Shown here: positions 28,439-48,438 of the stretch, piece after piece
How positions within the stretch are numbered: the stretch's first letter is position 1
How the letters are laid out: each line of letters starts with the position of its first letter
Source of the DNA: Deinococcales bacterium
GTDB taxonomy: Bacteria > Deinococcota > Deinococci > Deinococcales > JAAFIG01
Assembly: GCA_013298185.1 (NCBI GenBank)
Contig: JAAFJQ010000002.1
Location: 9,591 to 73,590 of the forward strand
Direction: 5' to 3'
DNA: 64,000 nucleotides
Position numbers and translations under genes: made by a program
The notes under the pieces: generated by a model
The model's input: the letters and a program-made list of their open reading frames with translations, nothing else
Told to the model about the DNA's origin: nothing
Database searches by the model: none

Positions 28439-28441
28439 TTT

Positions 28442-28469
28442 GGGTGTGATTTTGGTCACACCCGTTTTT
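28442..28469 (+). terminator. Intrinsic terminator GGGTGTGA-TTTTGG-TCACACCC-GTTTTT
   Basis: 8-bp stem starting 4 nt after the stop at 28438, followed by a T-run. The stem contains a perfect TGTGA-N6-TCACA. Confidence 0.65.
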
Positions 28470-28498
28470 CTGGTCGTGGTATGATAGTGCTAGCACTT
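28444..28498 (+). promoter_or_regulatory. Promoter/operator module D: GTGTGATTTTGGTCACAC plus TAGTGCTAGCACTT
   Basis: Box 28444-28461, core 28485-28498, 25-nt spacer. GATAGT is a possible -10. Precedes the PAS-GAF-HD-GYP gene. Confidence 0.5.
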
Positions 28499-28543
28499 TA
28501 AGTTTTGGACAAGCCTGAATATCCACAGGCTCTTTGAAAATCC

Positions 28544-31345: not shown

Positions 31346-31370
31346 ACCTTTTGACCCACCAATACCCGCC

Positions 31371-31423
31371 GTGTGATTTTTGCACACCGATTGATTGCTT
31401 ATCCAGATATAGTGCTAGCACAT
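31371..31423 (+). promoter_or_regulatory. Promoter/operator module E: GTGTGATTTTTGCACAC plus TATAGTGCTAGCACAT
   Basis: Box 31371-31387, core 31410-31423, TATAGT 31408-31413. AAGGAG RBS lies before ATG 31440. Confidence 0.55.
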
Positions 31424-31439
31424 ACCAAAAGGAGTGACC

Positions 31440-32066: not shown

Positions 32067-32096
32067 AGCCATTACGCTCCGAACGATAAGGACACC

Positions 32097-33254: not shown

Positions 33255-34026
33255 CCACCCCAAAAAACGCCCTAGTCTTTCAATCATTGTTCCAACCTAC
33301 AATGAATTGGTGCGGATTCTTCCCACACTTGGCAGTATTGCAGTTGTGGTTTCGGGTATTGAAGACAATTGGGAATTGATTGTCTCAGATGACGGCAGCA
33401 GTGATGGGACACTAGAAGCCATCGAGAATCTGAAATGGGTAAATTTACGCATCCTCAGACATGCCAACACCGGTAAAGGCGGCGCGGTTCGCCGTGGAAT
33501 GACAGCGGCTCGAGGACAGTATTTGTTATTCACCGATGCCGATAACAGCACTCCTATCGAAGAACTACCGCGTTTTCTCGAAGCACTGCACAAAGCCGAT
33601 ATGGTGATTGGTTCAAGAGCCGTAACTGGGGCAAATGAAAAAAACAAAAGCCTGATCCGCAGCTTTGGTTCTCGGGTTTTACGTGGTTTAACCCAAATGG
33701 TGCTAGGACTCCCCATCCGAGATACCCAATGTGGTTTTAAGTTACTGCGTCGCCATACCGCCTTAAAGCTCTGTGCTTTGCAACGCATCGAAGGGTTTTC
33801 ATTTGACCTCGAGTGGTTGTACTTGGCAAAAAGACTGCAATGTCGGGTGCTTGAACTACCAGTGGGTTGGTTTGATGCACCAGGTAGTAAAGTACAAGGG
33901 TTGCGCGACGGGCTACGTTTTTTGCAGGACATGGGCAGAATTCTGCACAACGATGCCCTTGGTTTGTACCGCCGTTTGGAGGTGAGTCATGCACCTCGTT
34001 ATCATCAGCGCTCTGCCGCCGAGTAA
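33223..34026 (+). CDS. GT2-family glycosyltransferase (polyprenol-phosphate sugar transferase-like)
   Basis: SIIVPTYNE, VSDDGSSDGT, FTDADNS (DxD), IRDTQCGFK. Confidence 0.8.
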   Translation: MSYQKFKKWRDHPKKRPSLSIIVPTYNELVRILPTLGSIAVVVSGIEDNWELIVSDDGSSDGTLEAIENLKWVNLRILRHANTGKGGAVRRGMTAARGQYLLFTDADNSTPIEELPRFLEALHKADMVIGSRAVTGANEKNKSLIRSFGSRVLRGLTQMVLGLPIRDTQCGFKLLRRHTALKLCALQRIEGFSFDLEWLYLAKRLQCRVLELPVGWFDAPGSKVQGLRDGLRFLQDMGRILHNDALGLYRRLEVSHAPRYHQRSAAE

Positions 34027-35164
34027 AGGCACGCTCAACGAATATGGTTTACATCTGATCGAAGCCCTGAGTCAGAAATCAGAGATCAGTCAGATTACAG
34101 TTTTGGCTGACCGAACTGACCAAGCCGAAACACTGCACTTTAAGCACACCACCATTCAGCGTGTTTGGGAGTTTAATCACCCACTGAACTTTTGGCGAAT
34201 TCGCCAAGCCATTGTGCGACTCAAACCCGATGCGGTGCTGTTCAATTTGCAATTCTCAAGTTTTGGTAGCCAAGACTTAGCGGCGGCACTGGGTTTAATC
34301 ACACCTGCCCTGATTCGTTTCATGGGCATTCCAACCATTACCTTGCTGCATAATCTGATGGAAACCGTCAACCTCAAAGAAGCGGGTTTTGGCAGCCATG
34401 CGTGGCGTGAAAAAATCATTCGTTTTGGTGGGCGAATCCTGACCAAATGCCTCTTAGCCAGTCACCGCTTAGCCATTACCATGCCCGAGTACCAGAAAAT
34501 TCTCGAGGATCAATACGCTGCCAAAAATGTTTTCCATGCGCCTCACGGGGCTTTTTCTAAGCGCGAACCAACCCCACTACCAACGAACCGCACAATCATG
34601 ACCTTTGGTAAGTTTGGAACCTACAAACGGGTTGAAGTGCTGATCGAAGCCCATCAACGACTTCTAGCCCAAGACCCAAACCTGCGCTTAATCATTGCGG
34701 GAAGTGACTCCCCGAACCGCCTTGGCTATTTGGCAGCCGTCCAACAACATTTTGCCCATGCCAAAAACATTGAATACACGGGTTATGTTCCCGAAGAAGC
34801 TGTGCCTGCTTTATTCGAGAACTCGAGTGTCGTGGTTTTTCCGTACACTGCCACGACCGGCTCAAGTGGGGTGCTCCATCAAACAGGCGAATTTGCTCGA
34901 GCCGCCGTGATGCCAACCATTGGCGACCTTGAAGCCTTGGTGCAATGTGAAGGGTATCAAGCCGAGTTTTTTGAACCCAACGATGTGTCTGGTTTGGCAG
35001 CAGCCCTTTGGCGGGTACTGGCAAACCGTGAGTACGCCACCCAACTAGGACTGGCAAATCACCGTGCCTCGAGTCAGTTATTAATTTCAGAGGTTGCCGA
35101 GATTTACCTAAATCAATTCCAAAAGCTACGTCGCAAACAACTCACACCAATCATGGAGGTCTAA
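33989..35164 (+). CDS. GT4-family (GT-B) glycosyltransferase
   Basis: 391 aa. C-terminal nucleotide-sugar binding half with FPYTATTGSSGVLHQTGEFARAAVMP, typical of group 1 glycosyltransferases. Confidence 0.7.
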   Translation: MHLVIISALPPSKGTLNEYGLHLIEALSQKSEISQITVLADRTDQAETLHFKHTTIQRVWEFNHPLNFWRIRQAIVRLKPDAVLFNLQFSSFGSQDLAAALGLITPALIRFMGIPTITLLHNLMETVNLKEAGFGSHAWREKIIRFGGRILTKCLLASHRLAITMPEYQKILEDQYAAKNVFHAPHGAFSKREPTPLPTNRTIMTFGKFGTYKRVEVLIEAHQRLLAQDPNLRLIIAGSDSPNRLGYLAAVQQHFAHAKNIEYTGYVPEEAVPALFENSSVVVFPYTATTGSSGVLHQTGEFARAAVMPTIGDLEALVQCEGYQAEFFEPNDVSGLAAALWRVLANREYATQLGLANHRASSQLLISEVAEIYLNQFQKLRRKQLTPIMEV

Positions 35165-35165
35165 G

Positions 35166-35453
35166 ATGGAAATCCGCACTGAATCCCAAGGTTCAACCAC
35201 TTTTTTGTATTTACTCGGGCGATTTGATGCCCACACAACCCAGTTATTTCACAGCAAAACGCTGGATATTCAAGGCAGACTGATCATAGATTTAACCCAA
35301 GTTAATTTTATAGACTCACGCGGTTTAGCCGCCCTGATTGGGTTGTACCATCGCCTTGGGACACTGTTGACGCTACGCGCTCCACAAGATGCGGTGCGCT
35401 TGATTTTTGAAATCACTCGCCTCGACCAAGTGTTTATCTTCGAGCAATCATGA
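35166..35453 (+). CDS. STAS-domain anti-sigma-factor antagonist (SpoIIAA/RsbV-like)
   Basis: 95 aa. VNFIDSRGLAALIGL carries the conserved phosphorylatable Ser. Confidence 0.8.
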   Translation: MEIRTESQGSTTFLYLLGRFDAHTTQLFHSKTLDIQGRLIIDLTQVNFIDSRGLAALIGLYHRLGTLLTLRAPQDAVRLIFEITRLDQVFIFEQS

Positions 35454-36547
35454 CCACCCAGACCAATGAACTTCAAGCGCTGGTGACCACACTTGCTGAC
35501 AGTTTTGACCAAATTGTCTTCCTCGAGCGGGCAGTGCAGCACATCAACACTTGCGAAACCCCCGAGGCGCTGCTACCAATCCTCGAGGAAGCCCGCCTGA
35601 TGTTATCGGCTCAACACGCAGCCTTGTCACTTGGAGGGCAATGGCTGACCCCTGTGCCGCCTTGGCTGGCAGAGCTGGCAACCTATCAAGTACCCATGCT
35701 CCAACCAGCTTTGCTGATACCATTCAGAGGCGGATGGACAGCCTTTTGGGGTAAAGCCCAAGGCTTTGGGGCAGCCGAACGAAAAATTGCTGAAACCCTT
35801 GGGCGTTTAATGGCTGGTTTATACCAAAGTCTCGAGCTGCGCCAAAAACAGCAGCAACAAGCCTTAGAAGCCCATGAACAACGGCTTGCTTCGGATTTAT
35901 GGCGCACGATTATGCTGCAACCTCAAACCCAATTACCAGCTTACCAGTGGCAAGTCTGGTATGAACCAGCCAAAGAGATTGGCGGTGACTTTTACCTGAT
36001 GGATGACAATTGGGTCATGGTTGGCGACATCAGTGGCAAGGGCTTAGCCGCCGCGATGCTCTCGGGGATGTTCCAAGCTGCGGCAAAAGTTGCCTTAAAA
36101 CAAGCCCAACCTTTTAGGCAACTCGAGCAAGCCATGCTGGCTGATTTTCTAAAAACAGGCATGTTTTGTACCTTATTTGCCACACAATTTTTGAGTAATG
36201 GCGAACTTGGTTATTTGAATATGGGGCATCCGCCAGCTTTGCTGATTGATCCTGCTGGCTCGGTGCGGTGTTTATCAGCCACGACTTTACCGTTTGGCAT
36301 TTTTCCAACGCCAGACCTCGAGTTGCAACGGGTTCAACTGGTAGACCAAGAAATTTTGGTTATCCTGACCGATGGTGTCACCGAAGCCAGTCAACACGGT
36401 TTGTTATACGGGCAAGAAAGACTGATTTCTTTACTTAAAAAAACCACGCACCCAAGCCAAGTTATTGCTAAAATAAAGTCAGAACTCAAAAGTTGGCAAA
36501 TCGAAGATGATGTGTGTGTCCTTGCCATCCAATACCAAGCCACTTAA
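35450..36547 (+). CDS. PP2C/SpoIIE-type serine phosphatase with an N-terminal sensory region
   Basis: GGDFYLM, VGDISGKGLAAAML, LTDGVTEA. 4-nt overlap with the STAS gene. Confidence 0.8.
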   Translation: MTTQTNELQALVTTLADSFDQIVFLERAVQHINTCETPEALLPILEEARLMLSAQHAALSLGGQWLTPVPPWLAELATYQVPMLQPALLIPFRGGWTAFWGKAQGFGAAERKIAETLGRLMAGLYQSLELRQKQQQQALEAHEQRLASDLWRTIMLQPQTQLPAYQWQVWYEPAKEIGGDFYLMDDNWVMVGDISGKGLAAAMLSGMFQAAAKVALKQAQPFRQLEQAMLADFLKTGMFCTLFATQFLSNGELGYLNMGHPPALLIDPAGSVRCLSATTLPFGIFPTPDLELQRVQLVDQEILVILTDGVTEASQHGLLYGQERLISLLKKTTHPSQVIAKIKSELKSWQIEDDVCVLAIQYQAT

Positions 36548-36556
36548 AGGACTGTT

Positions 36557-36922
36557 ATGCAGCGTCAATTTCAAGCTATTCCCGCATCTTTGGAACAGAT
36601 TGCACTTTTTTTAAGCGAGGCGGGTGTGGTGCATCCGCGTGTTCTTTTGGTTGTCAATGAGTTAGTCACCAATGCAATTTTACATGGAAAGGCTAAAATA
36701 TTAAAAATTGTGATTCAAAAACAAAAAGAGTCTTTAAAAATCATTATTTCTGATGATGGAATAAAGTTTGATATAACTCAAAATATTTTTTCTTTACCAA
36801 TTCAAATTCAAGAAAATGGCTATGGTTTATATGTGATTCAAAATTTAGTGGATAAAATAAATTACTCAAGAGAAAACAATTGGAATTTCAATGAATTTCA
36901 GTTTACTGAAAACCATGAATAA
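36557..36922 (+). CDS. RsbW/SpoIIAB-like anti-sigma serine kinase (HATPase_c)
   Basis: N-box ELVTNAILHG; ISDDGIKFD; ENGYGLYVIQNLVD. The 3' two-thirds is very AT-rich. Confidence 0.7.
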   Translation: MQRQFQAIPASLEQIALFLSEAGVVHPRVLLVVNELVTNAILHGKAKILKIVIQKQKESLKIIISDDGIKFDITQNIFSLPIQIQENGYGLYVIQNLVDKINYSRENNWNFNEFQFTENHE

Positions 36923-37268
36923 TCAACTGATTGTTGTGTTTTGTAAAGACATTAGCCTTCGATTGCTGATTGATTATATTCTAAAAAGTCGTTATCAAAA
37001 TATTCAATTTATTTCGAGTTTATCAGAATTATCGGGTATTTACAGCCCCAATATTTTTTTAATTATTTTTGATTTTGGTACTGAACCAACCCAAACACTT
37101 CAAGCTATTAAAACAATCAGACAAGTATCTAAAATACCCATTATGGTCATTGAAAACTACACTGAGATTTCCGATGAAATTCATTTGAAAGCCCTTGGTG
37201 TCAACAGTTTTTTAACCAATCCATTCTCTCGAGATCAGTTGCTGGCAGAAGTCAAAAAATATGAATAA
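36915..37268 (+). CDS. Receiver-like (REC) single-domain protein with a degenerate acidic pocket
   Basis: ATG 36915 (MNNQLIVVF) overlaps the previous stop. LIIFDF (Asp), PIMVIEN, NSFLTNPF. The N-terminal DD pair is replaced by KD. Confidence 0.5.
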   Translation: MNNQLIVVFCKDISLRLLIDYILKSRYQNIQFISSLSELSGIYSPNIFLIIFDFGTEPTQTLQAIKTIRQVSKIPIMVIENYTEISDEIHLKALGVNSFLTNPFSRDQLLAEVKKYE

Positions 37269-40257
37269 GTTAATTCAAAAGCACGCCCTTTTTTTTGTTG
37301 CCTTAGGCATTATTTTGCTTTTTCATGGCACATTGTTAGTCAATCAAAGTTTTTATCGCACCTATGATGCGCTGATTCACATTTTTTTTGCTTCGCATTA
37401 TGCCAATGCTTGGTTTGACCCTTGGGAACCTCGGTGGTACACAGGTTTTACAGTTTTTTCTTACCCGCCACTTTCACATCAATTGATTGCGTTGCTCAGT
37501 TGGTTTATGGATTTGCGGCTTGCTTTTGGCTTGGTACAATTTGGCGCGATTTGCGTACTGGCGCTTGGAATTTACCGCTTTTCGCAGCTTTTGGGTTCAA
37601 CCACAGCGGCTGGTTTGGCAAGCCTGCTTTTTGCGGTCTCGAGTAGCTTAACCCAAACTGTGCATGTTTACGGACAACTCCCAACCATTTTATCACTTGG
37701 GTTGTTGCTCAATGCCTTGCCTTTTTTGGTGGACTACATCCGCTTTGGGCGTAAACAGCACCTCTACAAAGCCTTGATTCTGGTGGCTGCCACCACCACG
37801 GCTCATCATGTCACGACTATTTTTGGCAGCGTTTTTTTTATTCTGCCGCTGATGGTTGCTTTTTGGTTGCCAACCGCCAAACAAGCCCGTCCACTCGAGC
37901 CAAGCACCCCGACTTTTTACCGCATGTTACCGACAACCTATAGGTCTGTTATTTTTCTGGGTTGCACCGTGGTTTTTTTGGTACTAACGGTACTACCTTA
38001 CTGGCTTTGGAGTCGCAATGACCCGATCACCCAAACACCCATTCCCCATGCCAGCCGCGATAATTTTATCCAAAACCCCAATGCTGGGTTACTCTTTTTT
38101 GTGATTCCGTGGTCGAGTCTGATTGTCTTCTTACCCAATGCCATCAGCCATGCCCTACGTTCTTGGCGTTGGGCAATTGGGATCAGTCTGATGCTGCTTT
38201 TTATCCTCGGCACGGGTGGCACAACACCATTGCCAAAATTGATGCTGGGTCCTGCTTTTGATATTTTAACCCTCGAGCGTTTTACCTTTTGGGCAACCAT
38301 TCTGATTTTACCATTTGCAGGCATCAGCCTCGAGCGATTGCTGCATAGCGATTTAAGTCCGTTTTCGGATCAACGGCAATTCAAGCTGCTGCTTCTACTT
38401 GGTGGGGTAGCAGTAAGCCTAGGCATTGCCATTTATATTTCTGGGATGACTCGGCTGCGCCAGTTTCAACCAGAGCCAATCAATGTTCAACCAATTGTTG
38501 AATTCATCAACAAAGACGAGCATTGGCGTTACCGTTACTTAACCCTTGGCTTTGGTGACCAAATGGCGTGGTTGTCTGCCAACACCAAAGCCCAGACACC
38601 AGACGGCAATTATCATTCTGCTCGGCGTTTAATTGAACTGACCAAAACCAGTGTCGAGCGGTTGGATGGTGCAAAATTTAGAGGCGTAGATGGCATTGGT
38701 AGCTTAGAAGAATTTCTGACCAACCCTGAGCGCTTTCACCTGAAATTTATTTTTAGCAATGATACCTTCTACGACCCCCTACTGTTTTTTATGGGCTGGC
38801 ACAAAGTCATTCGACTCGAGAATGGGATCATGGTTTGGGAGCGCGAGGACATCCCACCTCTGCCTGAGCGTTTACCGCGTCCAGTCATTGATTTATGGCA
38901 AAGAATTGTCTGGGGCAGTTTACCAATGCTGATTTTGGGCTTGCTCCCCTTGGTGCTGATTCGCCAAGCCAAGCCAGACCGTCTGTATTTTTGGCATCGC
39001 TACACTTGGGGTAAAGGCTGGTTGCGGCGCTTAAAAGCCGATTCCAGCCCAAGGCAACTTGTCGAATCAGAAGCGACTTTTCAACCGATTCGCCGACCTC
39101 GAGTTTGGCTTGGTTTATCTGGTTTGGTTGGTCTGGTTTTGCTTGGCGTTTGGTTATATCCAACCCCAAGCACCCCCGAAAAAACCATTCAAGCCTACTG
39201 GAATGACCTTGATTTTGGACGTTTCAGCCAATCATTTGACTATATTTCAAAACAACAAGGTCTGACTTTAGAACGCTATTTGCTCGAGCGTTCGATTCGT
39301 GGTGGTTTAATTGTCAATTACGCTAAATTGTCCGAAATAAAAACAACCATCATCTCGAGCAGTGCCAATCAAGCTGTAGTACAAGCGGAGATCAGTTGGT
39401 TGACCAGTCTAAGTACACTCACCCGACGCTTTGTCTACCAAATGGTGCTAGAAGCTGGAGCTTGGAAAATCAAGCAATCACCTTCGGTCTTACCGCGTCC
39501 TACCAAGCGTTTTTTCACCGAACCAGCCTTGGAATACGATCGCGCTCCAAGGCGTTTGACCACTTTGACCAGCGATGCTCGAGATATTTTAGACCGCCCT
39601 CAACTCGAGGTGATTTCTGCCCGTTTGGTGACGTGGAAAAACACCACAGGGCAACTTGTTTGGTCCGTGATAGGCGAACTTGAAAACATTGATGCCCGCC
39701 CAGCTGACTGCACGGTCACGGTGGTGCTGCGCGACCAGTATCAACGCCAAATTGCTCAGAGCAATGCTGGAATGACCCTGTTACATAAATTATTGCCAGG
39801 TGAGCGTACAGCCTTTCGGGTTGATTTTACTGCCCTATCAGCACCAATCAATGACTTTGAAGTGATTGCCAAAGCCGTGGTTACCCAAACCGACCTCGAG
39901 CGACCATTGGCAATTTGGGTAAAACAAAAACCTGATCGCTTTGAAGCTCAAATAAGTAACCTCAGCAACCAAAATGTAGTTGTGTCAAGAGCGTTTTTTC
40001 ATTTTTATGACGCATCTGGTTTGGCTTGGTCAGAAAACCAAATTATCGAAAACCAAATTCCACCCTCTAGCAGCCTGCGGCATTCGTTTGTCCTGACAAC
40101 CCCAAAAGAATACCGTGTGCTTGCCATCCAGCGCCAAGTGACTGATGCTCGAGTGGTTTTTGATAATAAAACTGCCCAACGTCCTGCCTCGACCACTGTT
40201 TTCAATCTGCCTTGGTCATACCGCATTCAAATGCAGGCGTTTTTAGGAACGCGATGA
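37261..40257 (+). CDS. Large polytopic membrane protein (GT-C-like N-terminal half, ~440-aa extracytoplasmic C-terminal half)
   Basis: 998 aa. More than 10 hydrophobic segments in the first ~560 aa, and another near residue 620. WFDPWEPRWYTGFTVFSYPPLSHQ motif. Confidence 0.5.
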   Translation: MNKLIQKHALFFVALGIILLFHGTLLVNQSFYRTYDALIHIFFASHYANAWFDPWEPRWYTGFTVFSYPPLSHQLIALLSWFMDLRLAFGLVQFGAICVLALGIYRFSQLLGSTTAAGLASLLFAVSSSLTQTVHVYGQLPTILSLGLLLNALPFLVDYIRFGRKQHLYKALILVAATTTAHHVTTIFGSVFFILPLMVAFWLPTAKQARPLEPSTPTFYRMLPTTYRSVIFLGCTVVFLVLTVLPYWLWSRNDPITQTPIPHASRDNFIQNPNAGLLFFVIPWSSLIVFLPNAISHALRSWRWAIGISLMLLFILGTGGTTPLPKLMLGPAFDILTLERFTFWATILILPFAGISLERLLHSDLSPFSDQRQFKLLLLLGGVAVSLGIAIYISGMTRLRQFQPEPINVQPIVEFINKDEHWRYRYLTLGFGDQMAWLSANTKAQTPDGNYHSARRLIELTKTSVERLDGAKFRGVDGIGSLEEFLTNPERFHLKFIFSNDTFYDPLLFFMGWHKVIRLENGIMVWEREDIPPLPERLPRPVIDLWQRIVWGSLPMLILGLLPLVLIRQAKPDRLYFWHRYTWGKGWLRRLKADSSPRQLVESEATFQPIRRPRVWLGLSGLVGLVLLGVWLYPTPSTPEKTIQAYWNDLDFGRFSQSFDYISKQQGLTLERYLLERSIRGGLIVNYAKLSEIKTTIISSSANQAVVQAEISWLTSLSTLTRRFVYQMVLEAGAWKIKQSPSVLPRPTKRFFTEPALEYDRAPRRLTTLTSDARDILDRPQLEVISARLVTWKNTTGQLVWSVIGELENIDARPADCTVTVVLRDQYQRQIAQSNAGMTLLHKLLPGERTAFRVDFTALSAPINDFEVIAKAVVTQTDLERPLAIWVKQKPDRFEAQISNLSNQNVVVSRAFFHFYDASGLAWSENQIIENQIPPSSSLRHSFVLTTPKEYRVLAIQRQVTDARVVFDNKTAQRPASTTVFNLPWSYRIQMQAFLGTR

Positions 40258-41474
40258 AGTCGGTTATTTTCCTAGTGATGGTTTTTATCCTATCTTCTTT
40301 AGCTGGAGTGGCGTTTTATATTGTTTTCCATGTATTATTTCAACCTTCAACCAAGCAGCTCGAGTTTCGCCCAGAAACCAAAGTGGCAATCACCCAAGCT
40401 GGTATCGTCTTACAAATTGTTGCCCCAAATCAACAGCCTTTCCCTGGTGGACTAACAGCCAAAGTTTGGCTTGAGACTCCCGCCGGGATACTGGTAGCCA
40501 CCAGCATAACCACACAAGAAGATAAGCAAAGCTATTTTTTCCCGTACAAACGAGCTGGCTTGGTGATCTACCAAGTGCAGATCGGTCAGTACCGCAGCTT
40601 TGGTCGTCTGGAGCGCCAGAGCCTCTTACCAGTCAATCCGCTAAAACTCAATGTTGGCGCTCGAGCGGTACGACTTGATACCAGCCGCCCACCTGCTTTG
40701 GTGATTCACCCAACCGATGCCTTGGGCAATGTCAGTGATGCACCGATTCTGGTCACTACCCGAACCCCCAATGGCACAATTCAACAAACAACCATTCGCA
40801 GTCAGCATCTGCTGGCGTGGACTTGGCTGCCTGTTGGACAGCGCCCGGGTTTACTTCATGTTGCCGCCCAAAGCAGTCAGGCTTTTGGTGAGCGAGCCGA
40901 AGTGGATATTCTGGCAGGCGCAACCCAACAAGCCCAACTTGACTCGAATGCCAATATGGTCAACGACCCAACTCGAGATCAAGTCGAACTGTTATTCAAC
41001 AAGGCAATAGATCAATTTGGTAATCCTGCCACCGATGGAGCAGCCGTTGAATTTACCAGTCAGTCAGTGTTAGGTTGGAATTTATTTCTAACCCGCCCGT
41101 TGGTGCGCTCGAGCGCCACTGGCAAGATACCTCTGCTTGGTTCTGGCAAGCTACAAGCTCGAGCCGAAGCGTACCAAAGCCCAAAACAGAGCATCAAAGT
41201 TAAATCTTTGCCTTGGCAGGTCTGGCTGGAAAACAATCAGCTCCTGAGTTCAGTTTTTCGGGATGAACTTGGTTCAACCTTGGATGATGGCACACCGATA
41301 GAGCTAGACCTGATAAACAAAACCACACAACGGCACTTCACAACGTACTTGAAAAACGGTCGTATCGGTTTCCCACTCCCCAATATTGGTGCGTTTAAGC
41401 AACTCGAGGTGACAGTCTATGGCGAGACAAAAACCATTCAACTTAACGATTTGGGAAAAAAAGGCAAACCCTAA
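40254..41474 (+). CDS. Membrane-anchored hypothetical protein
   Basis: ATGA overlap with the previous gene. N-terminal TM MKSVIFLVMVFILSSLAGVAFYIVF. The rest is beta-rich with no motif. Confidence 0.5.
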   Translation: MKSVIFLVMVFILSSLAGVAFYIVFHVLFQPSTKQLEFRPETKVAITQAGIVLQIVAPNQQPFPGGLTAKVWLETPAGILVATSITTQEDKQSYFFPYKRAGLVIYQVQIGQYRSFGRLERQSLLPVNPLKLNVGARAVRLDTSRPPALVIHPTDALGNVSDAPILVTTRTPNGTIQQTTIRSQHLLAWTWLPVGQRPGLLHVAAQSSQAFGERAEVDILAGATQQAQLDSNANMVNDPTRDQVELLFNKAIDQFGNPATDGAAVEFTSQSVLGWNLFLTRPLVRSSATGKIPLLGSGKLQARAEAYQSPKQSIKVKSLPWQVWLENNQLLSSVFRDELGSTLDDGTPIELDLINKTTQRHFTTYLKNGRIGFPLPNIGAFKQLEVTVYGETKTIQLNDLGKKGKP

Positions 41475-43098
41475 AATCGGGTTCAACCTCGAGCCAAATT
41501 CGGGCATGGTTTCGTTCAATGATCTGCTTAACAATATGCAGCCCTATCCCCATTCCATCTTGGGTATTGGTGGTGTAAAACAAATCAAACAAACGCCGAG
41601 ATGATTCTGGGGCTATTGGATTTGTATTGTTGGTGATTTCCAACCAAGTTCCACTTTCAAACGCCATACTGACAATCTGAATCCACGGAGCTTCTTGGTT
41701 TTTCCCTGCAAATTTCACAGCGTTCTGTACCAGATTTTGTAAAACTTGATAAAGTTCGGATTCAGCAAAAAACACACTGGGAGAAGCTAAGTTCAACTCG
41801 ATTTTAACTTGGCGCAATTCAATGTCAGCCTCTAAACTATCAAAAACCTGCTGCAATATGCTTTGCAGTTCCACTTGCCCAATCAAAAGACTTGATTGAC
41901 CTCGAGCCAATTCAAGCATCACATTCAGCATTTCATTCATCCGCACCGCAGCCGTCTGCACTGAGTCGGCAATGCGGGTTAATTGACTGTTGGTTGCACT
42001 CTGCTCTTTGATACGACGACTAGCCGCCAACAAGACACTTAAAGGCGCACGGAGATCATGTGAAGCGCTAAACACAAACGCCTCGAGTTCGATAGTTCGA
42101 TTTCGCAATTCATCGGTACGAGCAATCACTTGCTGTTCGAGATCAAGATTAAAAGCCCTGAGTTTTTCGACCAGTTGAATTCGTTCAATGGTATGAGCCA
42201 AAATCTGGGAGATACTCAAAAATAAATCCATTTCTTCCATAATTTCTTCGGCGCTTTGTTTGGCAAATCCCAATTGAATCTCACCAAATACACCGTCTTG
42301 CGTTACAATTGGCAATAACAAGATGGTTAATAAATTATTTCTATGAAGATAATCAATATCGGCTCGGTTGGCATGTGTTGTGTCTAAAATAACTGGTTTT
42401 TGTGTTTGCAAAACCAATGCAGTTGGAGAATTTTCTCTGGTCATCCAAATGGTTTCAGGTCTACAAGCACTTGATTTTATACCTTCAATAACAATAATTT
42501 TAAGGTATTTTGAACCAACTAAACTTGAAATTTTAATCGATTGATTATTAAAAATTTGATAAATTTTTTGAGTAAAATAACTACAAGCGCCTAAAATTGT
42601 ATAAATATTATTTAATTCAAACGAAGTTTCTTGAAGTAAATATCTTTGTTGATATATTTTTTTATATTTTATAAGTAATTTTACTTGATTATCAATATCT
42701 GTATTTGTTCCAATCCAGTGCGTAATTTCATCATTTTTAACCACTGGCTTAGCTGTAACTTGAAACCATTGCCAAGTATTTTTTGAAGATTTTAATCTTA
42801 CTTGTATGTTTAAATGAATAATTTTTTGTTCAGCCAATTTCCAAGCCATTAAAAAACCCGTAAGATCTTCTGGGTGTATAACACTGTAAAGCCTTTGACT
42901 AGATATTTTACTTTTACCATATAATCCCGTAAAACTTTGCCAATATTTGTTGAAATAAACTATATTTTTTTTAGAATTTAAGACAAACCAGACATGGTGC
43001 GGAATATTTTCAAAAAGTTCTATATTTTCAGGGATTAAAGAATCAAAATCTAACAAGATAAGCCTCCAAGCATGGTTTCCTAAATTCAGAAGCACCAA
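41443..43098 (-). CDS. PAS-GAF sensor histidine kinase (5' boundary uncertain)
   Basis: H-box FSASHDLRAPL, N-box LVQNAVKF, G-box DGMGIGLHIVKQI. The sensor half (about 42250-43098) is very AT-rich. Confidence 0.8.
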   Translation of the reverse strand: MVLLNLGNHAWRLILLDFDSLIPENIELFENIPHHVWFVLNSKKNIVYFNKYWQSFTGLYGKSKISSQRLYSVIHPEDLTGFLMAWKLAEQKIIHLNIQVRLKSSKNTWQWFQVTAKPVVKNDEITHWIGTNTDIDNQVKLLIKYKKIYQQRYLLQETSFELNNIYTILGACSYFTQKIYQIFNNQSIKISSLVGSKYLKIIVIEGIKSSACRPETIWMTRENSPTALVLQTQKPVILDTTHANRADIDYLHRNNLLTILLLPIVTQDGVFGEIQLGFAKQSAEEIMEEMDLFLSISQILAHTIERIQLVEKLRAFNLDLEQQVIARTDELRNRTIELEAFVFSASHDLRAPLSVLLAASRRIKEQSATNSQLTRIADSVQTAAVRMNEMLNVMLELARGQSSLLIGQVELQSILQQVFDSLEADIELRQVKIELNLASPSVFFAESELYQVLQNLVQNAVKFAGKNQEAPWIQIVSMAFESGTWLEITNNTNPIAPESSRRLFDLFYTTNTQDGMGIGLHIVKQIIERNHARIWLEVEPDFRVCLFFPNR

Positions 43099-43163: not shown

Positions 43164-43203
43164 TGAGAAAGCTGTCTCAAGCCAAAAAGAGACAGCTTTC
43201 TCA
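43164..43203 (-). terminator. Perfect 15-bp-stem hairpin TGAGAAAGCTGTCTC-N10-GAGACAGCTTTCTCA downstream of the TPR-SARP gene
   Basis: Read directly. A third GAGACAGCT copy follows at ~43212. No clean T-run. Confidence 0.45.
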
Positions 43204-43234: not shown

Positions 43235-45154
43235 TTAATTGATGTGCATATTTCGCTCGAGGCGTTGCAATTCTTGTGGAATTTCATCAAGCTCTTGCAA
43301 AAAACGATTTTGCAAACGAATAAGGGTGCGTTTCGCTGCCAGTTCACCCTCCAAAGCCAGGGTGGCATTGACCATATACTCAGCTAATGCCACATCCAAT
43401 TCTAGCTCGAGCAATCGCTCAGCCAGTGAAATACATTTGTGATATTCACCAAGAGCAGACCATTTTTGTAGGGTTTGTAATCCGATTTTTGTGATTGACC
43501 AAGCCAAAGTATTTCGCTCCCTTTCCGCCCAAAGGCTGGTTGCCTGAGGTAAAAATGGACCCGCCATTTGATCCAAAGCAACCTGAACCTTATTTTCAGC
43601 ATCGCTTCTGAGGATTTGCTGAAGTAAAGTATAGTCCCACTGAAAGTGTTTAGCTTGGTAACTGAGCGAATACGTTTTATGCCGAGCCGAATACTCAAAA
43701 GAAATCACTTTGGTCTTTTGACGCAAATATTTATTGGCTTGGTGAAAGTAATCTATGGCGCGTTTAGGATCGGAATCCGGAAACAAAGCAGCCATGATTT
43801 GCTCGCGTCGGCTGTGCGGGTGAAGCAGCAAGTACGCCATGATTTCAATGGTTCTGACCATATCCAAAGCAATCACTTCGCCATTGATACGCAACTGCAT
43901 TTGCCCTAAAGTCAATAAATCAATCTGCATATCCACTGAACTTGGCACAACATCTTCTTTGGGGATAACAATGTAGCGCCCACTGTGCTTAGCTGGTAAA
44001 GATCGAATCTGCTTACACAATAAACTCAAACCAGATGCTTCAACCAACGTACTGTGTGCATTACCCGCAAAGGCAGTGCGTCCTGCCAGAACCAGACACT
44101 GGTCTATCCGTTCAGATGACTGCCCCAAGCGCAAATAGCCTTCGATTTGATTTAACAAAGCCCAAAGCACTTCTCGAGTTGCGCCCAAACGCCTAAATTC
44201 AGTTTCTGCAAAATTGAGGCGCTCTAACCCTAAAGTATCACCTTCGGCAGTCAGTAAGGCACCTTCACGCAAAGCAAAATAAGCGCTTTCTCGAGCCGTC
44301 ATGGTCGGTAAAGCATTTTTAGCTCGCAACAAATGTAAACGTGCCAGTTCAGTTTCCCCGAGTACCATCAGGGTTGTGACCAAACCAAGCTCGGCATAAA
44401 ATTCGGTGGATGAATCGGGTACTTGTTTAGCAAAACCAGCCGCTTTTAAGTAAGCGCCTTGGGCAGCTTGCCAATCCCCAACGGCTCTTGCCCAAGTACC
44501 AAGTGCATACTCGAGCAGTCCTTCTAAAGTCGGAGTTTCCGAAATACCAATTTTTGCTTGGTTGAGGTCTTGTTGCGCCACATCCAAGTGACCTAAATAC
44601 ACCCGACACAAACCACGGTAAATCAGTAAACGGGTGCGCCTTCCGGGGCGTAAACAATTTAAGCCAAGCGAGTAATAATGCACTGCATGTTCGTAACGCT
44701 CGAGTTGATTGTAGATCATACCCAATGCTTGAGCTATACCTGCTTGTAAAGGTTGAAGCCCTGCATCTGAAAGACTTAAACTCCAAGCCTGCTCGAGACA
44801 TTCAACAGCACATTGATGCTCACCAGTACGAAACGCATGAAGACCAGACTCGCGCCAATACAGGATTTGATTGATCGGCGAAAGTCGGTGATGGTGCAAT
44901 TGATCAAGACACTGTTTTGACTTAGCAGTTTCACCTAAAAAACGGTACATCGTAGCAAGTTCAATGGCGGCTTCTTCACAACCACGGGTTTTGGCTTGAA
45001 GCAGCAAGTCTTTAGCTTGAAGGATTTTTTGTTGATGAAGTAAATATACCCCTCCCCAACGATCATCTTCAGCCGTAGGTTGCTCGAGTTCACAGTAAAG
45101 ACTCCAAGCCAATTCTTCTTCACCACTAAGCAGATGCTTAAAAATTGGATTCAT
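43235..45154 (-). CDS. Regulator with an N-terminal TPR-like helical-repeat domain and a C-terminal SARP module (OmpR-type wHTH + BTAD)
   Basis: 639 aa. ~400 aa of TPR-like repeats. Then LLTLGQMQLRINGEVIAL...IEIMAYLLLHPHSRREQIMAALFPDSDPKRA (wHTH) and a BTAD-like helical tail. Confidence 0.65.
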   Translation of the reverse strand: MNPIFKHLLSGEEELAWSLYCELEQPTAEDDRWGGVYLLHQQKILQAKDLLLQAKTRGCEEAAIELATMYRFLGETAKSKQCLDQLHHHRLSPINQILYWRESGLHAFRTGEHQCAVECLEQAWSLSLSDAGLQPLQAGIAQALGMIYNQLERYEHAVHYYSLGLNCLRPGRRTRLLIYRGLCRVYLGHLDVAQQDLNQAKIGISETPTLEGLLEYALGTWARAVGDWQAAQGAYLKAAGFAKQVPDSSTEFYAELGLVTTLMVLGETELARLHLLRAKNALPTMTARESAYFALREGALLTAEGDTLGLERLNFAETEFRRLGATREVLWALLNQIEGYLRLGQSSERIDQCLVLAGRTAFAGNAHSTLVEASGLSLLCKQIRSLPAKHSGRYIVIPKEDVVPSSVDMQIDLLTLGQMQLRINGEVIALDMVRTIEIMAYLLLHPHSRREQIMAALFPDSDPKRAIDYFHQANKYLRQKTKVISFEYSARHKTYSLSYQAKHFQWDYTLLQQILRSDAENKVQVALDQMAGPFLPQATSLWAERERNTLAWSITKIGLQTLQKWSALGEYHKCISLAERLLELELDVALAEYMVNATLALEGELAAKRTLIRLQNRFLQELDEIPQELQRLERNMHIN

Positions 45155-45232
45155 ACCCTCTCTCAGTGTACACCTCAGTATTCCAACAGAACGTGCTTTC
45201 TAGCATAGCCGCAACCTTAAAGGAGGTTGTGT

Positions 45233-45355
45233 ATGCAAAAAGTATTAAAACTCTTGGCTATGGTTTTTGTGTTACTGGCTGGTGGAATCGCTTTAGCTGA
45301 CCCTGACACTGGGGCAGGAACAGGCATTGGTAATGGCATTACACAAAGACCATAA
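45233..45355 (+). CDS. Unannotated 40-aa secreted peptide precursor (MQKVLKLLAMVFVLLAGGIALA/DPDTGAGTGIGNGITQRP)
   Basis: Not in the ORF track (under 60 aa). AAAGGAGG RBS 7 nt before ATG 45233. Classic signal peptide with an ALA cleavage motif. Followed by a hairpin + T-run. Divergent from the TPR-SARP gene across 78 bp. Confidence 0.5.
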   Translation: MQKVLKLLAMVFVLLAGGIALADPDTGAGTGIGNGITQRP

Positions 45356-45386
45356 ACACAAGTAAATACCATGGATTTTAACAACT

Positions 45387-45437
45387 AGCGGCGCAGATTC
45401 AGGCTTTGACCTCGAGATGCGCCGCTATTTTTGTTTT
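45387..45437 (+). terminator. Hairpin AGCGGCGCA-N22-TGCGCCGCT followed by ATTTTTGTTTTG
   Basis: Arms 45387-45395 and 45418-45426, then a T-rich run. Lies 32 nt after the peptide stop. Confidence 0.55.
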
Positions 45438-45616
45438 GTGCTGCACTTAAATGACGAGTTGATTTGAAAAAAATTGAGCTTATCGCCGTTTCTGTGATGC
45501 ACCACTTCTCGAGGCTCGAGGGAGCGCCCTAGTTTCTGCTCGGCGGCTAAGCGGTGGGCATAACGGGGGTTCTGACCGCGTTCTGGACTGTGGATCCGAG
45601 TTCGTTTGTACCTCAT
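45425..45616 (-). pseudogene. 5' fragment of an HNH endonuclease gene (first ~45 codons homologous to 12004-12279, then unrelated tail)
   Basis: MRYKRTRIHSPERGQNPRYAHRLAAEQKLGRSLEPREVVHHRNGDKL matches the intact copy. Homology ends after GDKL. Confidence 0.8.
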
Positions 45617-45619
45617 GAT

Positions 45620-45985
45620 TTACACCGTTTTGGAATGAATGAGCTGATGGTTTGGGATGGCATGTTGAAGGGATTGAATGGCTTGTGGGCTTAGGTGCTG
45701 GACACGTAAATAATCTTTGATGTTGGGGTCTGTTTTGATGTAACACTTGAGTTCTTCTTGTACTTCGGTAGGCAATTGAGCGCGAAACTCAAAACCCAAA
45801 TCAGTCAGCAGGAGTTCGCTGTAGTGGAGTACCTGAAATGCCCAGTCTGAGTCAAACCAGTACATCATGCAAGACGCACCCCCCGGTGAGTTTTTGGTGG
45901 GTGTTTTAGAAACCAAGTAAATGAAAGTTGGGTTTTGTTCCAACTGGTTTGATTCGTAGAATGCGCCCACTTGAGCTTGAAGCAT
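45620..45985 (-). CDS. Hypothetical 121-aa protein, tightly coupled (3-nt gap) to the HNH fragment
   Basis: ORF only; no recognised motif. Confidence 0.4.
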   Translation of the reverse strand: MLQAQVGAFYESNQLEQNPTFIYLVSKTPTKNSPGGASCMMYWFDSDWAFQVLHYSELLLTDLGFEFRAQLPTEVQEELKCYIKTDPNIKDYLRVQHLSPQAIQSLQHAIPNHQLIHSKTV

Positions 45986-45994
45986 GGTCTTATT

Positions 45995-46627
45995 CTACAA
46001 CCCTGCACTTTGTTTTGCTGCATTATTTGCTGGTGGTTTTGACATGACAGTCCGAACAAGGCTTTGTATTTGTACGGCGTTGACACCATTTTTGAGGCGC
46101 ACAAGTGGCAGCCTGACAGCTTCAAAAGCAGCGTCTTTGGTAGCATCTCGAGTACGTTGTTTTTCTAAAGTGTGGCTCCAGCCATCGAGTTCAATAATAA
46201 AAAGTGGTTGGTGGGTCTGGGCATTGACCACCAAGAAATCGAGGTGCATTCCTCGCAAACGATTCAGGGTTTGTAAACGTGCTGCACCTACGGGGTCAAT
46301 CACATCAAGCACCCGAACCTTTGGGAAGACTCGGTATTCGGTATCTGCAAGGGCTTGCTCGAGCAGCAAAAAGGCTTGGCTTTCTGCATTGGTGAAAAAC
46401 CGCGATCTGAGTTTGACCTCGAGCTGGCTGGTGGCTCGAGCTGGTGAATTGTAGGTTTGGGGTGTTGGGGTTTGCCTGTCTGGTTCGGCATACGAGTAAG
46501 AAGAATTCTCGAGTCGGCTTGACGGCTTTTTCTTTCTTGCCCGATAAACAAAAAAAGCAACCACGGCAGCCCAGAACAAGATGCCAAACCAATTTTTAAT
46601 GAGGTAGTCCATGCTCCAAACTAGCAC
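45995..46627 (-). CDS. Membrane-anchored DUF2726 (restriction-endonuclease-like fold) protein
   Basis: N-terminal TM WFGILFWAAVVAFFVY. FFTNAESQAFLLLEQAL...RVFPKVRVLDVI...HLDFLVV...IIELDGWSH...RD is typical of DUF2726. Confidence 0.65.
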   Translation of the reverse strand: MLVWSMDYLIKNWFGILFWAAVVAFFVYRARKKKPSSRLENSSYSYAEPDRQTPTPQTYNSPARATSQLEVKLRSRFFTNAESQAFLLLEQALADTEYRVFPKVRVLDVIDPVGAARLQTLNRLRGMHLDFLVVNAQTHQPLFIIELDGWSHTLEKQRTRDATKDAAFEAVRLPLVRLKNGVNAVQIQSLVRTVMSKPPANNAAKQSAGL

Positions 46628-46648
46628 GGGATTTTTTTGAGTCTGGGT

Positions 46649-47179
46649 TTATCGCCACAAGCCGCGTTTTGCTGCTCGAGCTTCGCGGCTGGCGGCTAGG
46701 ATTTGCTCGGCGTATCGGACATTTGGCGGGATGGTGAGTGGATCGGCATAGCCTGCTCGAGCAATTTCAACACTCGAGTTCTTGCCATTCACAAGCAAGT
46801 AAGCAAGGTTGCGCTGGTAACGGTCTGTACGTTGTACATCCCATTCAATCGTGACGGTTTTGTTCTCGAGCAAGGATTTGGTGAATGCCTTAGCGCGTTT
46901 ACCTTCAGCCACAATGCTGTCTAAGCTCTGTCCTGTCCGAGCTGCAATTGATTTGGCGCGAGCGTTGCGGCGCGATTCTGGGGTGTCTATGCCGATGAGC
47001 CTAAAGTTCTCTTTGAAGCCCTCGAGATGCACGGTGTCGCCGTCTATGATTCGGGTGACTTTGGCGATTTGGACTTGCTGCGCGTTTGCGGGTTGGAGTG
47101 CTGTCACGAGCTGGTACATGGCTGCACCGATGAGCAATGGAACAGCGAAAATAAGCTGTATTTGCAAACGATTCTTCAT
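46649..47179 (-). CDS. Exported staphylococcal-nuclease (thermonuclease/SNase) family protein
   Basis: Signal/anchor MKNRLQIQLIFAVPLLIGAAMY. IIDGDTVHL...RLIGIDTPE; RYQRNLAYL. Confidence 0.8.
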   Translation of the reverse strand: MKNRLQIQLIFAVPLLIGAAMYQLVTALQPANAQQVQIAKVTRIIDGDTVHLEGFKENFRLIGIDTPESRRNARAKSIAARTGQSLDSIVAEGKRAKAFTKSLLENKTVTIEWDVQRTDRYQRNLAYLLVNGKNSSVEIARAGYADPLTIPPNVRYAEQILAASREARAAKRGLWR

Positions 47180-47250
47180 GATTGACCTCTTAATTCTGTG
47201 AAATTCCCGCTTTGAATGCAGGAATTTCGCATTTTTGATAGAATGAATAC

Positions 47251-48438
47251 ATGGTTACTCGAGAAAAATTATTGGCTCGGATACGCACCGCCCTAAGTCG
47301 CAGTAAAGCCGTGGCATTGGTAGGACCTCGGCAAGTTGGTAAGACCACATTGGCTCGAGCTTTTTTACCCACTAAACATCCCAATTACTTTGACCTCGAG
47401 AACCCAGTGGCACAAGTGCGTTTACAAGAACCAATGACCGCACTCGAGCCGTTAAAAGGCTTGGTGGTGATTGACGAAGTTCAACTTGCTCCCAATCTTT
47501 TTCCTGTCTTGCGGGTTTTAATGGATGATAAACCAGATAACGGACAATTCTTAATTCTAGGCAGTGCCAGCCCCAAATTATTACAGCAAAGCAGCGAATC
47601 TTTGTTGGGACGAATAGAAGTGATTGAGGTGAGCGGTTTTGACATGGAGGAAGTTCCTGACCTTGAGATGCTTTGGCGACGCGGTGGCTATCCACTTTCG
47701 TATTTAGCCAGCAGTGAAGAGAACAGTTTGCAGTGGCGTAGAAATGCGGTCAACCGTTTTGTAGAACAAGACTTAACCCAATTGGGCATTAATGTTGCCA
47801 GTCCTGCAATGCTGCGTTTCTGGACGATGCTGGCGCATTACCACGGTCAAATCTGGAATGCAGCCGAACCAGCGCGGTCTTTAGGGGTCAATGAAAGCAC
47901 CGTTCGGCGCTACTTAGACACACTGACCCAAACCTACATGGTGCGGCAATTACAACCTTGGTTTGAGAACCTTGGTAAACGCCAAGTCAAACACCCTAAA
48001 ATATATTTTTCTGACACGGGTTTACTCCATTATTTACTGGGGATTCGCCAAGCTGATGATTTACTGGTTCATCCACGGCTAGGCGCATCGTGGGAAGGCT
48101 TTGCGCTCGAGCAGGTGATACGGCGGATTCAACCCGACCAAGCCTATTTTTGGTCTACCCACAGTGGCGCAGAATTGGATTTATTGCTCTTCAAGGACGG
48201 GAAGCGATTAGGCTTTGAATTTAAGCGCGGCGATGCGCCAAAACTCACCGCTTCGATGCGAACTTCTTTTGAGGTTTTAGAACTAACGAGTTTACAAGTG
48301 ATTTACCCCGGTGAGATTGCGTACCCATTGGGCGAGATTGCCACAGCCATGCCCCTAAAGCAATTCGGACTCGAGCAAGACAGTCTTGAGGCAAGGCAGG
48401 CTTTGGTCAAGGTTTCGTTGCCTCCTCGAGCAAAGTGA
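47251..48438 (+). CDS. AAA+ ATPase with C-terminal DUF4143
   Basis: Walker A GPRQVGKTT, Walker B VVIDEVQ. C-terminal GASWEGFALEQV pattern. Confidence 0.75.
   Translation: MVTREKLLARIRTALSRSKAVALVGPRQVGKTTLARAFLPTKHPNYFDLENPVAQVRLQEPMTALEPLKGLVVIDEVQLAPNLFPVLRVLMDDKPDNGQFLILGSASPKLLQQSSESLLGRIEVIEVSGFDMEEVPDLEMLWRRGGYPLSYLASSEENSLQWRRNAVNRFVEQDLTQLGINVASPAMLRFWTMLAHYHGQIWNAAEPARSLGVNESTVRRYLDTLTQTYMVRQLQPWFENLGKRQVKHPKIYFSDTGLLHYLLGIRQADDLLVHPRLGASWEGFALEQVIRRIQPDQAYFWSTHSGAELDLLLFKDGKRLGFEFKRGDAPKLTASMRTSFEVLELTSLQVIYPGEIAYPLGEIATAMPLKQFGLEQDSLEARQALVKVSLPPRAK

Follow-up and report, generated by a model that had tools for sequence, protein, structure and literature searches.

Is a short exported peptide, encoded back to back with a cytoplasmic regulator, the signal to which that regulator responds? 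The question is raised by a locus in a Deinococcales bacterium (contig JAAFJQ010000002.1, of which we analyzed a stretch of 64,000 nucleotides, referred to here as the window), where the gene for a 639-aa protein, predicted to join a tetratricopeptide repeat (TPR) domain to the DNA-binding module of the SARP regulators, diverges from an open reading frame (ORF) of only 40 aa. A preliminary description, made from the sequence alone, suggested that the two form a peptide-signaling pair reminiscent of the RRNPP quorum-sensing systems of Firmicutes. Here, we compared the locus with its relatives and modeled the regulator, and we arrive at the view, held with modest confidence, that the two genes constitute a peptide-signaling module of Deinococcota, in effect an RRNPP-like peptide/receptor loop with a SARP output.

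The features that had been assigned to the small ORF, namely, a strong ribosome-binding site, a signal peptide, an 18-aa mature part, and a 78-bp spacing from the divergent regulator, were confirmed together with their coordinates, and folding likewise confirmed the hairpin and T-run said to follow it (Table 1). The Shine-Dalgarno sequence (AAAGGAGG) lies 6 nt upstream of the ATG, and the product is predicted to be cleaved between ALA and DP. Signal peptides were assigned by rule (a K/R n-region, a 14- to 16-residue h-region, and the residues at positions -3 and -1); in each of the 12 distinct homologues examined, position -3 is A, V, or S and position -1 is A, followed by [D/N]P or NL. Across relatives, the ORF varies in length from 32 to 52 aa and the predicted mature peptide from 9 to 28 aa, and a family-wide core, [D/N]P-x-x-G-x-G, begins at position +1 of the latter. 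In the shortest versions, the whole 9- to 10-residue mature product is the conserved core (e.g., NPGTGNGGM in L027, a Meiothermus-type cluster), and signal peptidase alone may yield the active species.

A Nei-Gojobori comparison of six lineages gave proportions of nonsynonymous difference (pN) of 0.05 to 0.29 in the mature part, against proportions of synonymous difference (pS) of 0.47 to 0.94, with synonymous sites near saturation. Third codon positions were variable at 17/18 in this part, first positions at 7, and second positions at 6. The signal peptide is the least conserved portion of the ORF (pN of 0.27 to 0.48 between lineages, versus 0.14 to 0.29 for the mature part), and its architecture is kept although its sequence turns over. 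Start codon, Shine-Dalgarno sequence, stop codon, length, and postcleavage core are retained in more than 15 lineages. These patterns place the small ORF under purifying selection at the protein level. The preliminary description had made its proposal depend on the ORF being conserved and translated and on its not being a fragment of a decayed exported-protein gene; third-position variation and the low pN of the mature part speak for a conserved, coding-like ORF, and, with length, stop, and core retained, it is no fragment of such a gene; none of the grounds on which the proposal was to be refuted applied. Its characterization of the ORF as "untracked" held in part: metagenome gene callers do call it, but it is unannotated on the Deinococcus taeanensis, KNUC1210, D7000, and QL22 plasmids (RefSeq/GenBank).

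The terminator of the small gene was overlooked by a simple terminator scanner, its loop being longer than 8 nt, and hairpins also lie 3′ of the small ORF in other loci. Having its own terminator, the peptide gene is monocistronic. Two other identities for the product were considered and rejected. It is not a lipoprotein, as there is no lipobox Cys at +1 (bar a poor LGVC in one homologue), and the terminator together with the variable downstream genes rules against a leader peptide or upstream ORF.

Co-inheritance supports a receptor-ligand pair. At the first six homologous loci (regulator identity of 55 to 57%, 31%, and 26%), a divergent upstream ORF of 34 to 41 aa with a signal peptide was found in 6/6, and in the close clade (regulator identity of 50 to 57% to the window protein), an ORF of 40 to 41 aa, in six sequence variants, occupies the same divergent position in every locus. 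Relatives that bear the motif have a peptide-regulator gap of 47 to 172 bp (the products of the more distant ones are listed in Table 1); the most divergent candidates are those of L012 and L013 (regulator identity of 22 to 28%), Deinococcus aetherius (where the product is annotated as a hypothetical protein), and Deinococcus gobiensis. As a control for specificity, 250 kb of fetched DNA was scanned for signal-peptide-like ORFs containing [AG][DN]P.{1,3}G.G, and all 20 that were found lie divergently upstream of a regulator homologue; one more motif-bearing small ORF, in QL22, adds to these. A peptide-profile search of 5.8 billion proteins returned 6 clusters, with a regulator homologue beside the peptide gene in every contig examined, and found no larger homologous ORF anywhere. 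With a terminator of its own and downstream genes that change from locus to locus, the peptide gene has no constant partner other than the regulator. The expectation that homologous regulators would carry an adjacent peptide gene was thus borne out down to ca. 29 to 33% identity, with signal-peptide ORFs of more divergent sequence also lying beside regulators of 22 to 28%, and the recurrence of the pair in all close and most distant relatives exceeds chance.

Some of these loci have peculiarities of their own. Within the divergent small protein of D. aetherius (plasmid pDAETH-1; L036, 2212-2379), GGAHDFGQ occurs twice, and within that of Deinococcus ficus (plasmid pDFI1; L034, 1986-2189), whose ORF lacks a signal peptide, YPVGSARLTG occurs twice; these internal duplications resemble multicopy propeptides but could instead be DNA-level repeats. 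In L013 (745-5584), the candidate signal-peptide ORF lies between two different TPR-plus-SARP-like proteins of 822 and 564 aa, the shorter of which appears to lack most of the BTAD. In QL22 (L037, 1489-3392), the regulator is annotated as two coding sequences (484 and 155 aa), which reflects either a pseudogene with a frameshift or an error of sequencing, and the peptide ORF is intact.

The regulator proved difficult to classify by sequence. Pfam matches of the window protein to TPR_8, TPR_12, and TPR_7 were weak and below their cutoffs, BTAD scored 12.1 bits (E = 0.25) against a cutoff of 22.1, and Trans_reg_C gave no match; Pfam and NCBIfam added nothing useful to these subthreshold hits for the regulator and returned nothing for the peptide. 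Among homologues, Pfam TPR models exceeded the cutoff in P0002 and P0006, and BTAD passed in the latter, a distant relative (26.2 bits; E = 1.1e-5). Since the sequence-based calls were weak, structure was needed to settle the domains. An AlphaFold2 model of the full-length protein (from an alignment of seven homologues; predicted local distance difference test [pLDDT] score of 88.6) has ca. 22 helices in a superhelix (residues 1 to 395), a disordered linker (400 to 407), and then a beta/helix winged helix-turn-helix (wHTH) and a helical bundle. A Foldseek search of the PDB with this model matched generic TPR superhelices alone (e.g., OGT and LGN), and the C-terminal 235 aa were for that reason modeled separately (pLDDT of 90.7). 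This part gave six significant matches, all to the SARP domain of AfsR as seen in transcription-activation complexes (8hvr_I and 8k60) or to Mycobacterium tuberculosis EmbR (2fez and 2ff4), with E values of 1.6e-7 to 4.5e-5 and TMq of 0.59 to 0.70, the best being 8hvr_I (E = 1.6e-7; TMq = 0.70). Profile searches against PDB sequences found no SARP chain with the full-length profile and nothing meaningful with the C-terminal one.

The models firmly support a TPR sensor with a SARP module (wHTH plus BTAD) C terminal to it, and so bear out both the architecture given in the preliminary description and its point that this TPR-first order is the reverse of that in AfsR-type SARPs. Neither Pfam nor the model revealed a P-loop or NB-ARC domain, and the N terminus, which has no signal peptide or transmembrane segment, predicts a cytoplasmic protein. 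Identity within the close clade is 51 to 57% in the TPR domain, 59 to 75% in the wHTH, and 64 to 81% in the BTAD; the faster divergence of the sensor fits a conserved operator read by a protein whose sensor is diversifying. The C-terminal tail of the peptide varies in parallel with the sensor domain (QRP, TKP, SRP, TRP, APR, and TPR, in one-letter code).

The intergenic region holds a candidate operator. The direct repeat CTCAG-N7-CTCAG occurs a single time in the window (0.1 expected by chance; one or more matches arose in 10 of 100 shuffles), and it is invariant in the close clade, where, as in L026, each locus has exactly one copy, in this intergenic region every time. There are three CTCAGC units in L026 and three G(C/T)TCAGCRG units in D. 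gobiensis, and units spaced at 21 nt are seen in both. In 8 loci, the proximal unit begins 58 to 67 nt upstream of the peptide ATG, which, given a 5′ untranslated region (UTR) of ca. 25 nt, would place the repeat at about -35 to -50, the site expected of a SARP box; in the AfsR-afsS complex, SARPs bind at about -35 to -50. It is phylogenetic conservation that forms the main argument for this putative operator. The close-clade intergenic regions have otherwise diverged, the direct repeat, a TAnnnT hexamer, and a hairpin element being what is kept. A consensus promoter scan reported no promoter in the intergenic region, the hexamer of the window (TAGCAT) included. The 3′ arm of the hairpin includes the Shine-Dalgarno sequence AAGGAGG (45220-45226), and the element, (GC)AACCTTAA(A)GGAGGTTG, is kept in the close clade without compensatory changes; such a hairpin hints at translational control or at stabilization of the 5′ end. 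Rfam and tRNA scans of the window found nothing.

Under the signaling hypothesis, the 40-aa prepeptide would be exported by Sec and cleaved by signal peptidase I after A-L-A, and the 18-aa Gly/Thr-rich peptide so released would build up outside the cytoplasm and then be taken up again. Once back inside, it would bind the N-terminal TPR superhelix of the 639-aa regulator and alter the activity of the C-terminal SARP module. On the CTCAG repeats (ca. -35 to -50 of the peptide promoter), this module would recruit RNA polymerase and close an autoinduction loop; that the regulator autoinduces the peptide gene is probable. The regulator would also act on targets elsewhere, the adjacent genes in other lineages encoding cell wall hydrolases, peptidases, and an adhesin.

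Several considerations weigh against this scheme. Its steps, from export, processing, and re-import to TPR binding, the sign of regulation, and the regulon, are ones that we infer; what we observed is the anatomy of the two genes, the folds, selection on the small ORF at the protein level, strict peptide-regulator co-inheritance, and conservation of the direct repeat. Cells of Deinococcota possess an outer membrane, which an intercellular peptide must cross before being re-imported, and no Opp-type transporter adjoins the pair. The peptide core is also unusually conserved for a pherotype-type signal. With respect to co-inheritance, generic signal-peptide-like ORFs are frequent (1.35 per kb), and at that background the candidates of L012, L013, and L029 are not individually significant, only suggestive. 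No small ORF is recognizable in L028 (where DUF2726 and S41 peptidase genes lie upstream on the same strand, the latter at 454-1788), in L031 (flanked by insertion sequence elements), or within the 478 bp available before the contig edge in Deinococcus murrayi (L011), and L035 has a gene for a 142-aa lipoprotein in place of the peptide gene. As for the putative operator, repeat statistics at single loci are weak (shuffle P values of 0.003 to 0.4), and in some loci the CTCAG repeats overlap, on the other strand, -10-like TAnACT hexamers of the regulator promoter.

According to the main rival, the peptide is a secreted product under regulation and nothing more. In that case, the locus would comprise a regulator and its target gene with no feedback, the exported peptide would be an effector (e.g., periplasmic or envelope associated, antimicrobial, or part of a matrix), and the TPR domain would sense a protein partner or the pathway of a neighboring PAS histidine kinase. 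With a candidate operator in its promoter, the peptide gene is probably a target under either explanation, and it is true that TPR domains mostly bind proteins, that the kinase is kept beside the regulator in the close clade, and that such strong conservation of the Gly-rich core points to a constraint, structural or functional, over and above receptor specificity. However, the distant loci all lack the kinase and the peptide persists there. None of the immunity, modification, or dedicated export genes expected of a bacteriocin is present, and nine residues, the length of the mature product in L027, are few for a structural peptide. Peptide and regulator are inherited together one to one over 29 to 57% regulator identity, also where they lie on plasmids and mobile elements, a pattern typical of cognate receptor-ligand pairs. 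We regard a mere effector as unlikely, and still as the strongest competitor.

A second possibility, which we consider improbable, is that sensing is coupled to secretion, the TPR domain binding the unexported prepeptide or its signal sequence in the cytoplasm so that the regulator reports on Sec or export status rather than on cell density. This would require no crossing of the outer membrane and no re-import. The TPR class II chaperones of type III secretion do bind their substrates, and residues 134 to 200 of the regulator weakly match the NCBIfam model of the LcrH/SycD TPR chaperones (E = 0.0047, far below the cutoff); that match, however, amounts to generic TPR similarity, and conservation sits in the postcleavage core and not in the signal peptide, which is the least conserved part. 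Finally, we give very little credence to the idea that the small ORF is no gene at all (an ORF that by chance overlies a conserved cis-regulatory or small RNA element, or what is left of an exported-protein gene after decay), as might be supposed from its lack of annotation on several RefSeq plasmids and from the frequency of signal-peptide-like ORFs in these genomes, given that third positions vary while amino acids stay, that start, Shine-Dalgarno sequence, stop, and length are kept in more than 15 lineages, that signal-peptide architecture outlasts sequence turnover, and that the peptide-profile search found no larger homologous ORF.

Table 1. Features of the window, and small-ORF products encoded at related loci
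Feature	Position	Strand	Basis or remark
PAS-HisKA-HATPase histidine kinase, downstream of regulator	41443..43098	-	Pfam
Regulator gene, 639 aa	43235..45154	-	ORF list; N terminus MNPIF aligns with MNPIL of homologues
BTAD-like helical bundle, residues 507-639	43238..43636	-	Foldseek matches AfsR (8hvr_I/8k60) and EmbR (2fez)
OmpR-type wHTH, residues 408-506	43637..43933	-	Strand-helix-hairpin topology; aligns with AfsR and EmbR DNA-binding domains
TPR-like superhelix, residues 1-395, presumed ligand-binding sensor	43970..45154	-	AlphaFold2 model, Foldseek
Intergenic region between divergent start codons, 78 bp	45155..45232		
Direct repeat CTCAG-N7-CTCAG, 12-nt period, candidate SARP operator	45162..45178	+	
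TAGCAT, putative -10-like hexamer, 22 nt past second repeat	45201..45206	+	TAnnnT at same alignment column in relatives
5′-UTR hairpin, CGCAACCUU/GAGGUUGUG	45210..45231	+	dG -12.5 kcal/mol, z -3.5
Small ORF, 40 aa, MQKVLKLLAMVFVLLAGGIALADPDTGAGTGIGNGITQRP	45233..45355	+	Read from sequence
Predicted signal peptide, residues 1-22: n-region MQK..K, 16-residue h-region, c-region A-L-A	45233..45298	+	Read from sequence
Predicted mature peptide, 18 aa, Gly/Thr-rich, DPDTGAGTGIGNGITQRP, plus stop codon	45299..45355	+	
Intrinsic terminator of peptide gene: 10-bp G+C-rich stem, then UAUUUUUGUUUUG	~45386-45437	+	dG -27.7 kcal/mol, z -4.35
L004 small-ORF product, MKHSKIKSVFVALFVLFLGLASQVAANPSTGGGPGL			Metagenome; regulator 31%
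L005 small-ORF product, MKKIRLIGFRLVILAFAATQFALANLIPTGFGGK			Regulator 26%; more divergent candidate
L026 small-ORF product, MGRFIRVVAAVLALLCFEGLSYADPAGGMGGTSGAPTAKP			Metagenome; P0017; missed by gene-calling pipeline
L027 small-ORF product, MKRVFSVRALVYLVALAISVVLANPGTGNGGM			Meiothermus-type cluster
L030 small-ORF product, ...SALADPGTVGGGGLKITIPPSAPATSGW			D. taeanensis plasmid; regulator 32%
L032 small-ORF product, ...LAHADPTAGNGGGLGYQTLVTAPLLA			Deinococcus sp. KNUC1210 plasmid; regulator 31%
L033 and L037 small-ORF product, ...GADPSTGHGPGLKPASPPPPPVCTT(P/S)CG(N/T)			D7000 (29%) and QL22 plasmids

The regulator belongs to a sizeable and so far uncharacterized family. An exhaustive profile search returned at least 200 cluster representatives (clusters at 50% identity) with E ≤ 1e-30, and the best 150 of these are mostly full length (ca. 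600 to 680 aa) and align end to end. A word-index homology search, with 7 relatives from the single sequence and 3 more weak, partial ones with a profile, badly underreports it. Relatives in reference genomes are all Deinococcota (Deinococcales metagenome-assembled genomes and D. murrayi), as are all named cluster members, including "uncultured Meiothermus sp." and Deinococcus arboris; scans of metagenome and viral contig collections found no relatives. A tblastn search of plasmids matched nine from Deinococcus, and the cultured strains that carry the pair on plasmids are D. gobiensis I-0, D. taeanensis TS293, Deinococcus sp. KNUC1210, D7000, QL22, and D. aetherius ST0316. Many Deinococcus copies are on megaplasmids, some of them beside transposases. 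In L027 (1-9923), the pair sits between a CBASS-like defense cluster (SMODS/DncV-like nucleotidyltransferases, E2/ThiF, and JAB) and ArdC/ParB genes, surroundings that place it on a mobile element.

The genes that surround the pair vary. The kinase downstream of the regulator is present in L001, L002, L003, and L006 and absent from L004, L005, L026, L027, and the plasmid loci; it and a 998-aa membrane protein are syntenic in the close clade only, and the kinase was rejected as a core component because all distant loci lack it. Between the regulator stop and the kinase start, a perfect 14-bp inverted repeat (GAGAAAGCTGTCTC, a 10-nt spacer, and GAGACAGCTTTCTC; 43166-43203) may be a terminator or attenuator that separates the two genes. 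Further upstream, the block at 26906-41474, which encodes two HD-GYP proteins, GT2 and GT1 glycosyltransferases, a SpoIIE phosphatase, an anti-sigma-type kinase, a receiver protein, the 998-aa membrane protein (PTPS related), and a 420-aa protein for which Pfam gave no match, looks like a cyclic di-GMP/exopolysaccharide regulatory cluster. Past the terminator (45425-48438) come a 63-aa HNH-endonuclease fragment, a 121-aa ORF, a DUF2726 protein, a staphylococcal-nuclease homologue, and an AAA_14/DUF4143 ATPase; DUF2726 is also directly upstream of the distant regulator in L028. Five of six independent Logan contigs stop 213 to 229 bp beyond the peptide stop codon, and contig ends just past the peptide gene suggest a strain-variable or mobile island.

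In other lineages, the gene next after the peptide gene, on the same strand, encodes a 3,530-aa adhesin-like protein (L004), an M23 peptidase (D7000; L033, 750-2090), a CHAP-domain lipoprotein (QL22; L037, 207-1091), an S8 peptidase (KNUC1210; L032, 417-1739), or an HD-GYP protein (L012), each of them a candidate output. The neighboring secreted hydrolases could be outputs of the system or, alternatively, maturation proteases.

To our knowledge, peptide quorum sensing through a cytoplasmic receptor has been described in Firmicutes and the mobile elements they carry, and nowhere else. The preliminary description knew of no system combining a TPR-SARP regulator with an exported peptide, and our search of 8 million full texts turned up none; no paper among them links RRNPP with BTAD or with Deinococcus, none describes peptide signaling in Deinococcus, and discussion of Deinococcus SARPs is confined to a REC-SARP response regulator. 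Should the peptide prove to be the ligand, RRNPP-style communication would be seen for the first time outside Firmicutes and in bacteria that have an outer membrane, and a SARP regulator would for the first time be known to respond to a peptide encoded by a gene. The logic of a TPR receptor plus an adjacent propeptide would then have evolved more than once, and current detectors, which require a receptor of 250 to 500 aa and were run on Firmicutes, would miss whole families. We judge as evenly balanced the broader proposition that peptide quorum sensing arose independently in Deinococcota, with a TPR sensor fused to a SARP module, a [D/N]P-x-x-G-x-G autoinducer, spread on megaplasmids and mobile elements, and control of secreted hydrolases or adhesins in some lineages. 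For annotation, the analysis identifies a conserved small gene that several RefSeq records lack, and the signaling hypothesis is directly testable, there being cultured plasmid carriers and predicted peptides that are short and easily synthesized.

How, then, does the pair compare with known systems? The Deinococcus REC-SARP response regulator, Deide_19260 (COG3947), also has a C-terminal SARP output; it differs in its CheY-like receiver input, which stands where our protein has a TPR superhelix, and no adjacent peptide gene was reported for it (PMC3564903). With the SARPs of Actinobacteria (AfsR, EmbR, and ActII-ORF4/DnrI), the regulator shares the wHTH-plus-BTAD fold (TM scores of 0.59 to 0.70 to AfsR and EmbR) and a candidate direct-repeat operator of one- or two-helical-turn spacing adjoining the -35 region, the period being 12 nt here and ca. 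11 (or 22) nt there. Unlike AfsR and EmbR, in which the SARP module is N terminal, the window protein carries it at the C terminus. AfsR runs from SARP through an NB-ARC ATPase to C-terminal TPRs, whereas here TPRs precede the SARP module with no NB-ARC between them, and the FHA domain of EmbR is lacking. The window protein also does not reach the Pfam thresholds for BTAD and Trans_reg_C, and it is paired with a peptide gene and not embedded in a biosynthetic gene cluster.

The resemblance to RRNPP systems (Rap-Phr, NprR-NprX, PlcR-PapR, Rgg-SHP, PrgX, and AimR-AimP) lies in the organization: a cytoplasmic TPR receptor adjoins a small propeptide gene with a Sec signal, and the two genes are inherited together and are found on plasmids and mobile elements. 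A published signature of these systems comprises a propeptide of 10 to 100 aa, a Sec/signal peptidase I signal, a receptor of 250 to 500 aa, TPRs, and a distance of -60 to 400 bp between neighbors (PMC10075063). Four of the five are seen here: a propeptide of 40 aa (32 to 52 aa in relatives), a signal peptide by our rule-based reading in all 12 distinct homologues examined, TPRs in the modeled superhelix (residues 1 to 395) and its Foldseek matches, and a divergent neighbor at 78 bp. The receptor, at 639 aa, is longer than the signature allows. Intragenic duplications are frequent in RRNPP propeptides (PMC10075063), and the doubled GGAHDFGQ of D. aetherius is a likeness on this score, just as the hydrolase and protease genes adjacent to some loci recall NprR-nprA. 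Among PDB sequences, a regulator profile matched RapF (E = 8e-4 over ca. 84 residues) and AimR (E = 0.2) through single TPR stretches that ranked among many unrelated TPR proteins. The output also differs, being a C-terminal SARP module (wHTH plus BTAD) here and an N-terminal XRE-type HTH in RRNPP regulators, as does the host, a phylum with an outer membrane as opposed to Firmicutes and their phages. Moreover, the conserved part of our peptide is the N terminus of the mature product, in contrast to the C-terminal 5- to 10-mer that further proteolysis frees in RRNPP systems. Given the length of the receptor, its different DNA-binding domain and domain order, the phylum, and the generic nature of the TPR similarity, we regard the pair as an analogue and not a member of RRNPP, a system that was probably assembled independently from a TPR sensor, a SARP module, and a small exported peptide.

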